Program-made: the position numbers and the translations under genes
Assembly (NCBI GenBank): GCA_963720565.1
Contig: CAVRFW010000012.1
Location: 64,001 to 128,000 of the forward strand
Source: Candidatus Bathyarchaeota archaeon
GTDB lineage: Archaea; Thermoproteota; Bathyarchaeia; Bathyarchaeales; Bathycorpusculaceae
Direction of reading: 5' to 3'
DNA length: 64,000 nucleotides
Shown here: positions 20,804-29,105 of the stretch, in pieces
How the letters are laid out: every line of letters begins with the position of its first letter
Numbering within the stretch: position 1 is the stretch's first letter
The notes under the pieces: model-generated
Databases searched by the model: none
Told to the model about the DNA's origin: nothing
Seen by the model: the letters and a program-made list of their open reading frames with translations, nothing else

Positions 20804-20904
20804 ATAAACACCTTAGCATACTGTTCTCATACAAGGTATTAGCATTTTACTCATATCGCGCGCTGACTGAGCTTGGTAGAAGTTTTTGGGCGAAAACCTA
20901 TTTT

Positions 20905-26367: not shown

Positions 26368-26405
26368 CGATAAATCTGATCTCAGCAGCTCTAAAAAGCG
26401 TTCTT

Positions 26406-26455
26406 GTAAAGGTTTCTTGACTAAAACCAGATTTTGTCAGTCAAAATTTCTTGAC
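26406..26455. promoter_or_regulatory. Tandem palindromic operator, GTCAA-N6-TTGAC type
   Basis: GTAAAGGTTTCTTGAC (26406-21) and GTCAAAATTTCTTGAC (26440-55); the same arrangement recurs at 47473-47513. Confidence 0.55.
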
Positions 26456-26564
26456 TAAGCACCCCTGAACGCTCGATTGTCAATCAATAGGTCTTGGGCA
26501 CGCATGACTAAACGCTTTCGTAAACGAGAGCGAGATCATATCTTGATGGAGACATTCTAAGCGC

Positions 26565-26928
26565 TCACGTGCTGTTGACTGCTGCCTTGAAGTTGTAAGA
26601 TCCAATAGCTGTAATTGTGTATGTTGCACGCGCAATTCCCCCGCGATTAGTTTTCTGGGTCGCAAAATGAGTCCACTCACCGCCATTGAGTGAATAGAAG
26701 AATGCGATGTCTGATTCCGTCTCCGACAGAGTTACCGTTGATTCTGACTCTGGCTGTCAAAGAAACCTCACCGTTTCGGACCGAGGAAGATAGAGTAATT
26801 GTGAACTGCATATCTACGTGCACTACGTTGCTCGTAACCTGGAACATGCCATAAGCAGCCAAGTCGCTTCCCACTACGCAAAGCAGAAGAACAATGGCTA
26901 ATAACGTTTTCATAGGCGTTTTTGGCAT
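26565..26928 (-). CDS. Small secreted Ig-like protein, one frameshift
   Basis: Signal peptide. The corrected C-terminus reads DIAFFYSLNGGEWTHFATQKTNRGGIARATYTITAIGSYNFKAAVNST*. Confidence 0.65.
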
Positions 26929-27130
26929 GTTCTCACTTCGGGTTCTTCTTGCAGCTATTGTTCGTAACGTTAACAGAATTATGTTAATAACATAAGTGAT
27001 TTATGAACTATGAATAATCATTGTTTGAAGCGTATGCAGTTTTCGCAAGAATTCTATGGCTTGTTGAATGCAAACTTTGCTGTCAGGTTTGTTTTGGTTC
27101 GAGTTAGGTGTGCGTTTTAGTTTCCAAAGT

Positions 27131-27612
27131 TCGCGCGCTGCTTTGTCCCGAAAATGGTTAAAAATGGTTATAAGTCCGATTTGGCTAATTAGAGTCTGAA
27201 ATGGACTATTTTGAAAGTCGCATATTGGCCGCGCTCAAAGACGGCAAACCCCACACGTTCAGCCAAATCCAAGGACAAGTAACCTTCAGCCACAACACCC
27301 TCCAACAGCACCTCACCCAACTCGTCGAGAAAGGCCTTGTTCTCAAAGGAGAAACACCCTCAGAAAAGCTTCGGAAGACCCAAATACGCCTACCGTGTCC
27401 CGTCCAAGACGGCTAAGCAGGTTGCGGGTGCGCTGGAAGATCCTGGTGTGGAGTTGGTGACCATGCCGTTTAGCAGGGTTAGGCATGTTTGCAGGTTTGA
27501 GAAGGGCGGCTGGTGCAAAGAGAAGAAGGCGCAGTGTTCGCCTCAAATCTGCCCCCAAATCCGAAAATAAGACTTATCACCACTTTACACCAATAAAGGG
27601 ACCAGCGCGCGA
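27131..27612. mobile_element. Putative mini-element with ~45-bp imperfect terminal inverted repeats (TIRs) carrying one wHTH gene
   Basis: Left end: TCGCGCGCTG-cttt-GTCCC-gaaaa-TGGTtaAAAaTGGTtATAAGTC. Right end, reverse-complemented: TCGCGCGCTG-GTCCC-tttat-TGGTgtAAAgTGGTgATAAGTC. Confidence 0.55.
27201..27570 (+). CDS. Winged-helix (ArsR-like) protein with a C-terminal Cys4 motif, one frameshift near 27348
   Basis: RILAALKDG...FSHNTLQQHLTQLVEKGLV...GRPKYAY...CRFEKGGWCKEKKAQCSPQICP; about 122 aa after correction. Confidence 0.8.
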
Positions 27613-27864
27613 AAAGCAGTTGCGTAGGTAAAGGTGACTGAGTCGCCAGCTTTTATCCAGATGCCGTTTGAGAGTTGCCGGAGGGCTTTTGTTTCACCCT
27701 GAATTGTTGCTATCGTTCTTGATGTGCCGGGATGTAACGCATTAAGAGTTAGAAAAATCTTTTTCTTGGCAGGATAGATTCACAAGGATTGGAACCATCA
27801 AGGCACACGCACGTAAGCTTAATCTGATAGAATCGAAATCTCCACTTCTAATCAGGATGACCAA

Positions 27865-29105
27865 ATGACGCTTCAAAGCAGAATGGGGAAAGAGTTTTCG
27901 TTCATAAAAGGCAACTATGCCATACTGGTTGTAAGCTGGATCCTGATTGATTTCGCCTCAGAAATCCCAGCGACCTACTATGCCCTGTACGTTCTCAAAC
28001 TGGGAGCCACTGAGACAATACTTGGAATGATCGGGCTAGGCAGGTTTCCTTGCCTTGGCTTCGATGCAATTTCCAGGGGGATATTTGGCAGACAAGTTCG
28101 GAAGGAAATGGCTTGTTTCTTCCATGACTTTTGGAGTAGCATTATCCTACACGCTCTACGCTATTGCACCGTCATGGGTTTTCATCCTGATCGGGGCGGT
28201 TCTGACTAACTTTTTTAACTCGATTTACCAGCCCGCTCTGATGGCGATGATTTCAGATTCTTTGCCTTCTGAGAGACGTGGAATGGGTTTTGGCATAATC
28301 ATGTTAATAACAAGCACTTCTACCACTCCAGGCCCTTGTCGCAGCCCTCCTCTACAACCAGTTCGGAATGGAGTTGGGCATGAGAATAGCGTACGGCATT
28401 GTCGTTACCCTTTTCTTATTGCTTCAGTTCTTCGATTCCGGCTCAAGGAAACCTTCATAGACACGCCTAAGCCCTCTTGGAAAGAGTTTTTCCGCTCCTA
28501 TCCCACCTCGTTGAGGGAAAGTGTGAGGGTTTGGAAGAGAGTTCCAAGTTCAATGTTCTACTTGTTTCTGACCCGGAGCGATCATGATGTTTGGAGTTGC
28601 GGCCGTGCAGATTTATCTAGTGGTTTACGCGGTGAATGTTCTTCTGTAGATGCGACGGTATGGGCATACGTCTTGCTAGCTTTGCCTATTACAATGATAG
28701 TCTTTTCAATTCCTATTGGAAAGTTTGTAGACAAAATAAACAGGAAAATGCCCATATTGGCGTCATACGGCTTCTTCTTCTTCTCGTTGCTGTTTTTCGT
28801 AAGCGGCTGGTCTGTCTCTCTGCTTTTCCTGGCCCTAGTGTTTCTTAGGAGTTGGACTCGTCATGATGAACTCTGGATCTAGCGCCCTGCAAGCTGACCT
28901 GACACCCAAAGAAAGTCGCGGAAAAGTCCAAGGTTTCTCAAGCTTCGTTAACAACATTATGATGGCGCTGGGTGCTGTCACAGGCGGATTTCTTTATGAA
29001 CATTTTTCCCCTGCAATACCCTTCTATGTTTCAATGGGACTTGTCATTCCAGCCTTTCTCCTTACGCTGGCATTGGTCCATGAGCCCAAAGACAGACAAG
29101 AGTAG
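27865..29105 (+). CDS. MFS transporter, several frameshifts
   Basis: GYLADKFGRK, ERRG and ESRGK motifs spread over three consecutive ORFs. Confidence 0.85.

Follow-up and report, generated by a model that had tools for sequence, protein, structure and literature searches.

A probable transposase-less mobile insertion cassette of Bathyarchaeia, with the tips of IS5/IS1182-like insertion sequences and a winged-helix gene between inner repeats of its own

What kind of element is a single small gene enclosed by two mirrored ends, and what could move it? The question is raised by a stretch of 64,000 nucleotides from a Candidatus Bathyarchaeota archaeon (assembly GCA_963720565.1, contig CAVRFW010000012.1, positions 64,001 to 128,000 of the forward strand), which we call the window and whose own numbering we use throughout. 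Here, inverted arms of about 46 nt at 27133-27610 enclose one gene for a winged-helix protein with a tail of four cysteines (Cys4). An initial annotation of the window, made from its letters alone, had seen in this arrangement a non-autonomous mobile or invertible cassette, with a protein that may bind the ends of its own element. We think it probable that the element is a mobile insertion cassette devoid of transposase, that it carries the tips of IS5/IS1182-like insertion sequences (ISs) and is moved in trans by their DDE transposases, and that its protein, as predicted, binds the TGGT-N6-TGGT pairs located inside both tips. The genome to which the window belongs (13 contigs, 2.09 Mb, an assembly 89% complete) is referred to below as its own genome, with contigs C1-C13, the window lying on C12; related genomes bear labels of the form G0xx, loci labels of the form L0xx, and four public sequencing runs are called X1-X4.

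Where does the element begin and end? A repeat search of the window pairs 27130-27140 with 27603-27613 at 11 of 11 positions (the outer inverted pair) and 27145-27182 with 27565-27602 over 38 nt (the inner pair, 74% complementarity, 382 nt apart), in agreement with the inverted copies that had been noticed at both ends. The left arm, on the plus strand, has two parts. Its outer terminus (27133-27154) consists of GCGCGC (27133-27138) and 16 nt of a type, here called A (…GTCCC…), common to autonomous ISs; its inner arm (27155-27176) has TGGT units at 27155 and 27165, thus 10 bp apart as originally described, and then the TATA-like TTATAAG at 27168-27174, the whole being the presumed promoter/operator and also a presumed protein-binding site. 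The gene follows at 27201-27570 (plus strand, 122 aa), with its ATG (27201) starting 27 nt past the last base of the TATA-like box. Its stop codon (27568-27570) directly adjoins the right inner arm (27571-27592, minus strand), in which the TGGT pair and the TATA-like box are mirrored, and the right outer terminus (27593-27610, minus strand) combines A-type bases with GCGCGC at 27605-27610, being 4 nt shorter than in other copies. The box shortly before the ATG and the right repeat starting at the stop codon had both been correctly read.

Two details of the initial annotation need adjustment. The first concerns the bounds: conservation between copies begins at GCGCGC, on the left at 27133-27138 and on the right at 27605-27610, and the element is therefore 27133-27610, not 27131-27612. 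The second is the "cttt" that puts the two arms out of register, which is explained by a deletion of 4 nt in the right arm of the window copy: the hexamer precedes the first TGGT by 22 nt on the left and by 18 nt on the right, and by exactly 22 nt on both sides in 21 of the 27 elements with strict GCGCGC at both ends (27 of the 42 elements examined). As to chance, a 22-nt motif for the inner arm, with five positions left free, has two matches in the window, both inside the arms, for an expectation of 0.06 per window, and none of 100 shuffles reaches two matches, so that the similarity of the arms stands up well against shuffled DNA. There is one extra exact match to TCGCGCGCTG, at position 20856 of the window, which we take as fortuitous because no arm sequence follows it.

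Is this an isolated oddity or a family? The answer is what one would expect of a mobile element: homologues are multicopy, patchy in occurrence, and flanked by the same repeats at unrelated loci. Copy number, flanking repeats and variable position were among the checks that the initial annotation had suggested. In the own genome, the gene is present in three copies, of which one is that of the window (C12) and the others lie on C8 and C13. Remnants survive from the 3' side on C5 and from the 5' side on C9, C10 has a small pair of arms with no gene between them, and there are solo pieces on C2 and C4. A backward control in the search for these copies was uninformative, since TGGT and AAA read alike in reverse. 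The gene is present in 8 of 41 related genomes (one match being weak), with four matches in G021, and in 6 of 151 genomes sampled from the order. A protein search returned 553 clusters at 90% identity, mostly of 122 aa and mostly on contigs shorter than 3 kb, and a scan of species-representative genomes gave 79 loci, of which about 70 come from records with Bathyarchaeota or Bathyarchaeia in the title; many of the 79 are fragments, and many sit at the end of a contig. Arm-bearing ends of types A and C (see below) were found in 9 of the 41 related genomes, seven of which also have the gene, and they number 47 in G021. The same two-part arms thus occur in dozens of genomes of Bathyarchaeia, the DNA outside them being unrelated from one locus to the next. 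The TGGT positions are 90-99% conserved in 34 left arms, and in 22 of these the first TGG lies 46 nt upstream of the ATG; the 36 right arms compared also keep the TGGT units, with a consistent GT spacer where left arms have TA.

These observations bear on the simplest of the alternatives, according to which we would be dealing with immobile paralogous genes for transcription factors that have operators on both sides. The conserved type of winged-helix regulator and the promoter in the left arm are what such a family would show. We consider this very improbable, given that the flanks differ at every locus, that the gene occurs in so few genomes of the order, that copies lie at contig ends, that some copies are truncated or have lost the gene, that the site in the window is occupied in some strains and apparently empty in others, and that the tips are identical to those of transposase-bearing ISs, as documented below.

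One further copy is worth mentioning here. The sole viral locus found, an IMG/VR contig (L183, 1390-1980), has a copy of the winged helix-turn-helix (wHTH) gene at 49% identity between inverted arms. The left arm has kept the TGGT units and the right arm a single one, while the outer part is another one and lacks GCGCGC.

Where do the tips come from? The 16 nt behind GCGCGC fall into types: A (…GTCCC), B (…ATTAAAT), C (ATG..TGTTCC) and D/E (…GTTGC). Tips of type A have 45 matches in G021 and occur in 10 of the 41 related genomes (a backward control gives none, except one in G020); tips of type C have 33 matches in G021, where the backward control gives none, and occur in 11 of the 41. When paired, tips are found at three spacings: the cassette gives about 480 bp, elements that have no gene give about 160-300 bp, and the third class, at 1065-1101 bp, consists of ISs (1.07-1.1 kb), each with one open reading frame (ORF) of about 290-340 aa that contains DUF772 and DDE_Tnp_1. 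The transposase of L131, for instance, scores 46.8 bits for DDE_Tnp_1 (cut-off 23) and 42.6 for DUF772 (cut-off 23.1), and the pieces of L132 do likewise. We have ISs of type C (L131, L132 and L133, 1065-1084 bp), of type A (L140 and L141, 1101 bp), of type B (on C9 of the own genome, at about 335.5-336.6 kb, with an in-frame stop in the transposase) and of a further type (L059, abutting a cassette). In its left tip the window copy agrees with the two A-type ISs, L140 and L141, at 16 of the first 17 nt; its right tip, the 4-nt gap aside, equals one tip of L140, as read by eye. In the same way, the arms of the C8 cassette match the B-type IS of the own genome at 18 and 20 of 22 nt.

The likeness stops there. 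TGGT-N6-TGGT is missing from all five IS copies checked, and past the shared 22 nt the ISs have sequence of their own; the outer 22 nt of the cassette are therefore a borrowed part and the inner 24 nt are the cassette's own. Contrary to the statement that no family of ISs or of miniature transposable elements with inverted repeats (MITEs) could be recognised here, the outer 22 nt are thus the tips of IS5/IS1182-like DDE ISs. We say "like" with intention. The best NCBIfam rows for the C-type L131 are IS1182 (112.6 bits for a cut-off of 270) and IS5_4 (74.6 for 140), and for the A-type L140 they are again IS1182 (83 bits) and IS5_4 (68.8), below the same cut-offs of 270 and 140; these two families rank first but below threshold, and we therefore do not call the parents members of either. 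The cassette itself contains no transposase gene, its ORFs being two wHTH frames and short overlaps, so that the absence of transposase and integrase reported at first is upheld.

In the own genome, C9 is the only match obtained by tblastn with four transposase queries. In this B-type IS (about 335,550-336,560) the transposase frame has an in-frame TGA where relatives have Trp, and its left tip is that seen in the arms of the C8 cassette. Five kb away is the C9 cassette remnant, joined through one GCGCGCGC to a truncated copy of a MITE of about 160 bp. This MITE belongs to a separate family that is derived from an IS and has no inner repeats: its members have C-type tips and IS-like subterminal sequence, with no TGGT (examples are L012 at 1345-1489, on C9, and C13:64722-64858), and there are about 17 matches in G002, 12 in G004 and 2 in the genome of the window.

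Some descendants of the cassette have dispensed with the gene. A derivative of about 303 bp, of which 15 copies were aligned and which also has matches in G041, G051, G065, G067, G075 and G080, has both arms in full and, of the gene, a decayed 5' part; column identity is about 90% inside it and drops to 20-45% as soon as the hexamers are passed. Both inner arms are also kept in further elements that have no gene, with lengths of about 165, 184, 186 and 301 bp, and these resemble the 303-bp one only in the terminal 30-60 nt, inner repeats included; the 184- and 186-bp elements align with each other over their full length at 74%, the interiors being otherwise unrelated. The pairing of gene and tips is not fixed either. 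The protein tree mostly tracks the tip type, with the exceptions of L037, L051 and L067, and L052 combines an A tip (left) with a C tip (right), its gene being at a synonymous divergence (dS) of 0.12 from that of the C/C element L050; therefore, the module made of gene and inner arms has changed its outer tips more than once.

Three loci of this group deserve a brief description. At the right flank of a 303-bp element, G041 (L175, about 1520-1535) has 8 bases more than G021 (L158, about 2370-2385), including GCGCGC and TA, and these could be a footprint, a small remnant or chance. In L134 (G021:C23:13700-16950), a distance of 2.8 kb separates two arm-bearing ends, and between them lie two ORFs, one of 338 aa with a weak match to Mrr_cat (a restriction endonuclease domain, below cut-off) and one of 243 aa that looks by eye like a membrane protein; this may be a larger cassette carrying cargo, or just two solo ends. 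Finally, the region of G041 orthologous to a 303-bp insertion in G021 (L171, about 1100-1400, on G041:C16) contains the end of another gene, taken by eye to code for a transposase of the integrase type (rve-like), and such spots seem to collect different mobile elements.

Has the element moved at the locus from which we started? Contigs of X1-X4 were placed on the window. Their depth over the two arms is 60-180, against about 5 in the flanks, and many of them part from the window at 27129-27133 and at 27602-27606. X3, which may represent the source sample, has the occupied form over both junctions (26990-27153 with 1 difference, 27597-27781 with 3). In X1, X2 and X4, contigs of related strains match the left flank to 27122 or to 27134 (…GTTCGC), with 7-11 differences over 143-172 nt, and then continue, all with one common sequence, without the element; this places the insertion point, for which no strand is given, at 27120-27134. 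The continuation resembles, by eye, a diverged right flank, with GGTGAC at the matching distance, and one X2 contig rejoins the window at 27757 through a side of 30 nt. From these short contigs and this thin link to the right flank, we read the sequences of X1, X2 and X4 as an empty allele. As to the empty sites with a single GCGCGC for which a search had been suggested, related strains in three runs lack the element here, but the junction has GC or CGC and not the full hexamer. No empty site was found in genomes of the same genus or family for the flanks of the window copy, of C8, of C9 and of six G021 loci; the best candidates in sister genomes have only one flank conserved, or another element at the spot.

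The same contigs speak to the other half of the original proposal, that of an invertible cassette. As a switch, it would have in its arms the sites for a site-specific invertase flipping the gene or its promoter. Inverted repeats with a palindromic GCGCGC at their outer edge are indeed what one would look for in such a device. Strand-changing joints are absent from the contigs of the four runs (contigs can miss rare forms), and no recombinase is present in the cassette or in the neighbouring ORF lists (the locus searches used DDE transposase queries, not invertases). Moreover, one invertible locus would explain neither the dispersal of the family nor the existence of cognate ISs, and we find an invertible cassette hardly credible.

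A different repeat lies nearby, at 26390-26460 of the window, just downstream of a gene for a surface-protein-like product. It is about 68 nt long, has many matches (72-91% identity) in all four genomes of the same genus, and its depth is 36-63, against about 5.

What happens at GCGCGC itself? Among the 27 elements with strict hexamers, direct repeats of 1-6 nt at offsets 0-3 outside the hexamers are not more frequent than with shuffled partners. In the flanks, T and A are preferred at positions -2 and -1 (16 of 27 cases at -2 on either side; 17 and 18 of 27 at -1). Different elements that abut each other have one GC run in common (L059:3400, L060:1478, L077:1533, L077:1959 and L036:1763), which suggests insertion at a pre-existing hexamer; in the empty allele the junction reads …TTCGC and then T or C, so that at most 2-3 nt of the hexamer pre-exist there. 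GCGCGC is mildly over-represented in the own genome (468 observed, 360 expected from a Markov model). It had been put forward as crossover core or as duplicated target: nothing supports the former, and for the latter the shared hexamers speak in favour and the GC or CGC of the empty form against. These data fit a transposase that would join GCGCGC-tipped ends at GC-rich sites, palindromic or partly matching, without an ordinary duplication. A possible parallel is IS1272, of the IS1182 family, which according to passages of PMC5678879 inserts at palindromic stem-loops and makes no target duplication.

What, then, is the protein? As assembled, the gene consists of two overlapping frames (27201-27416 and 27337-27570), because of an extra G at 27348/27349; when this G is read as a four-letter step, the full protein of 122 aa matches the family throughout. 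The gene first described as coding for about 122 aa with winged helix and Cys4 tail is thus right as to its product and split as to its frame. The break may be an assembly error, which we consider because the window also has, at 28039, one base absent from the contigs of the four runs. This last base lies in the overlap of the split frames of an MFS-type transporter. Two other positions, 26712 and 27049, have one base more than three runs (X3 gives no cover at 26712 and has the base at 27049), and several split neighbouring genes together with these surplus bases suggest single-base insertion errors in the assembly.

The N-terminal half matches HTH_20 (E 3.9e-6, 27.2 bits, cut-off 27) and HTH_5 (E 7e-5) in Pfam, MarR being also among the matches. 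Its best named relatives are Lrs14 (E 4e-12) and Sta1 (E 4e-11) in NCBIfam, and 2d1h (E 4e-8), also 6cmv, in the PDB; Lrs14 and Sta1 both score below their family thresholds, with 46.1 bits for a cut-off of 90 in the case of Lrs14. AlphaFold2 predicts a winged helix of the H-H-H-strand-strand kind, with predicted local distance difference test (pLDDT) values of 86-92 over residues 1-50, a further helix at 68-79, and a Cys4 tail modelled below 55. The PDB profile search matched the winged-helix part only, and the ESM Atlas returned the clusters of the family itself. The tail (C-x7-C-x6-C-x4-C) is constant, its four Cys and His95 being invariant in all 22 aligned homologues. ORFs are intact at 24 of the 29 loci checked, and the median ratio of non-synonymous to synonymous substitution rates (dN/dS) is 0.19, with a maximum of 0.46, over the 108 pairs in which dS is not saturated (out of 276, the other 168 being saturated). 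To judge from these rates, the protein is under purifying selection.

Could this protein itself be the enzyme, that is, a new kind of recombinase that moves its own mini-element? It is the sole gene within the arms, has presumed sites at both ends, and its Cys and His are invariant. Domain, NCBIfam and PDB profile searches gave no match to a nuclease or recombinase family, Foldseek found generic MarR/ArsR folds only, the outer tips belong to ISs with a DDE transposase, and the most successful derivative, the 303-bp one, has lost the gene. An autonomous cassette therefore strikes us as extremely unlikely.

Lrs14-type proteins offer a guide to what such a protein may do. Passages of PMC11841832 describe them as dimers that bind cooperatively to their own promoters over the TATA box, propose looping for them, and present many as general nucleoid proteins. 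The cassette protein resembles Lrs14 and Sta1 (PMC11841832 and PMC1635249) in its small size, its archaeal origin and its winged-helix fold, whose helix-wing core is the same, and it is predicted to sit over its own TATA box. It differs from Lrs14 in having the invariant four-Cys tail where Lrs14 has a coiled-coil dimerisation helix, and from both in being encoded inside a mobile cassette, in Bathyarchaeia and not in Sulfolobales.

We can now put these elements together. The match of the 22-nt tips to IS5/IS1182-like ISs makes movement in trans by the DDE transposases of these ISs the most likely mode, and the claim that the cassette is mobile and non-autonomous is borne out by its multiple copies, its patchy distribution, the same arms at unrelated flanks, the polymorphic site and the tips that match ISs. 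The IS transposase would cut and join at the GCGCGC tips. The protein would repress its own promoter, whose transcript is probably leaderless: TTATAAG about 27 nt before the ATG fits such a transcript, and one base (27168) is common to the TATA-like box and the second TGGT unit, so that autorepression is the simplest function to propose. Bound to both arms, the protein may also act on the ends, by pairing, marking or shielding them. Since TGGT is kept in right arms across clades with saturated dS, and in gene-less offspring too, the sites appear to matter at both ends, and we infer that the protein would occupy both arms and affect the use of the ends. The window copy itself looks stranded or decaying and is probably immobile now, because its right tip is short, its frame is possibly broken, and no intact cognate transposase was found in its assembly (89% complete).

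The most serious challenge to this picture concedes the cassette and its origin from ISs, and denies the protein any part in mobility. The protein would be mere cargo: a nucleoid protein, or a regulator that is autoregulated or directed at the host. The inner repeats would be nothing else than promoter and operator, and their mirror on the right would go back to the way in which the cassette originated. Lrs14-type relatives do bind at the TATA box of their own promoters, and general nucleoid proteins are numerous among them (passages of PMC11841832); the promoter-like box stands at a fixed distance from the ATG (with the first TGG at 46 nt in the 22 of 34 left arms already mentioned); G002 and G013, in which the search for the wHTH gene gave nothing, have elements with arms and no gene; and conservation in the 303-bp derivative is no higher in the arms than between them. 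We nevertheless judge this view unlikely. A relic would have decayed, and the right inner arm is kept across clades in which dS is saturated (the same 168 of 276 pairs); gene-less derivatives that are alike only at their termini retain both inner arms; and the motif is scarce outside elements, with 29 matches genome-wide for about 10 expected, of which about 9 are inside elements.

One may also be tempted to go further than the role in the use of ends that we favour. In a bolder version, the protein would be the cassette's own end-binding adaptor, which would sit on the TGGT-N6-TGGT pairs next to the borrowed IS tips, loop the 480-bp cassette and present its paired ends to the transposases of several IS lineages. 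We offer this tentatively, as a possible reading that we do not ourselves expect to prevail. If it were true, the cassette and its gene-less offspring would be hyperparasites of insertion sequences, the four cysteines could provide a metal or redox gating, and with every hop, four sites bound by a mobile regulator and a promoter for it would be dispersed through the genome.

Several points weigh against the interpretation of a cassette moved in trans whose protein acts at its ends, and they should be acknowledged together. The evidence for the empty allele comes from short and diverged metagenome contigs, with the right flank reached by one 30-nt side. The 27 elements have no conventional target duplication at their ends, and the clues on GCGCGC conflict, the hexamer being common to abutting elements and reduced to GC or CGC in the empty form. 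In the 303-bp derivative, conserved at about 85-95% over its whole length, the arms do not stand out from the interior. In the 151-genome sample, the wHTH gene occurs in 6 genomes and the transposase (E <= 1e-20) in 12, with both in 2, and the own genome has no transposase match at E <= 1e-20. G002 (74% complete) and G013 (84%) have arm-bearing elements, with no wHTH gene found in them. Finally, the binding of the protein to the arms and its role at the ends are deduced from sequence.

How does this compare with known systems? The cassette is, in our opinion, a mobile insertion cassette (MIC), a class to which MIC231 of Bacillus cereus also belongs. It is distinguished within that class by a fixed DNA-binding passenger, by subterminal repeats specific to the cassette and by exchangeable IS tips. 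In passages of PMC3129680, MICs and MITEs are IS derivatives that have no transposase and can be activated by the cognate IS. The resemblance is close: the terminal inverted repeats match autonomous ISs, there is no transposase, the elements are small, multicopy and found at variable loci, a passenger gene is carried (as in MICs), and gene-less, MITE-like offspring exist too. The differences are that the arms are composite, made of a borrowed 22-nt IS tip and a 24-nt inner repeat absent from the parent ISs; that hundreds of cassettes carry one and the same conserved DNA-binding passenger; and that the module of gene and inner arms is paired with tips of several IS types, with no duplication outside the tips. 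As for the parents, their size of 1.07-1.1 kb and their proteins of about 300-340 aa with DUF772 and DDE_Tnp_1 are those of IS5/IS1182 elements, and the palindromic GCGCGC junctions without ordinary duplication recall what parts of PMC5678879 describe for IS1182/IS1272; they differ by scores below the NCBIfam cut-offs, and the window element by having no transposase at all.

A comparison of another kind can be made at the level of the protein. InsA of IS1 is a small zinc-finger/HTH protein that binds the inverted repeats of its own IS and represses transposition. The cassette, too, encodes a small DNA-binding protein with Cys that could bind metal, and has putative sites in its terminal repeats that overlap its own promoter. 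InsA, in contrast, belongs to an autonomous IS and has a frame in common with the transposase, whereas the cassette is transposase-less and its sites are missing from the parent ISs; moreover, there is no sequence relationship between InsA and the cassette protein. Full-text searches of the literature (main texts) turned up no account of this cassette, nor one of an archaeal IS tipped with GCGCGC or of a MITE from Bathyarchaeia.

What does this tell us about Bathyarchaeia? We have here an abundant and hitherto unannotated repeat family of this group, whose 553 protein clusters are mostly on contigs broken at the repeat, and which accounts for assembly breaks as well as for annotations as "ArsR/Lrp/MarR regulator" that are in fact parts of a mobile element. 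Non-autonomous elements are normally passive DNA; this cassette keeps a gene under purifying selection, and presumptive sites for its product inside both tips. If the protein does act at the ends, we would have a transposase-less element that brings its own DNA-binding factor, and with it a handle on the way in which IS5/IS1182-like transposases choose their ends and their GC-palindromic targets in archaea. In any case, the cassettes and their derivatives spread identical clusters of predicted binding sites, together with promoters, mostly into intergenic DNA, and they have done so to the extent of 47 ends in a single genome (G021).

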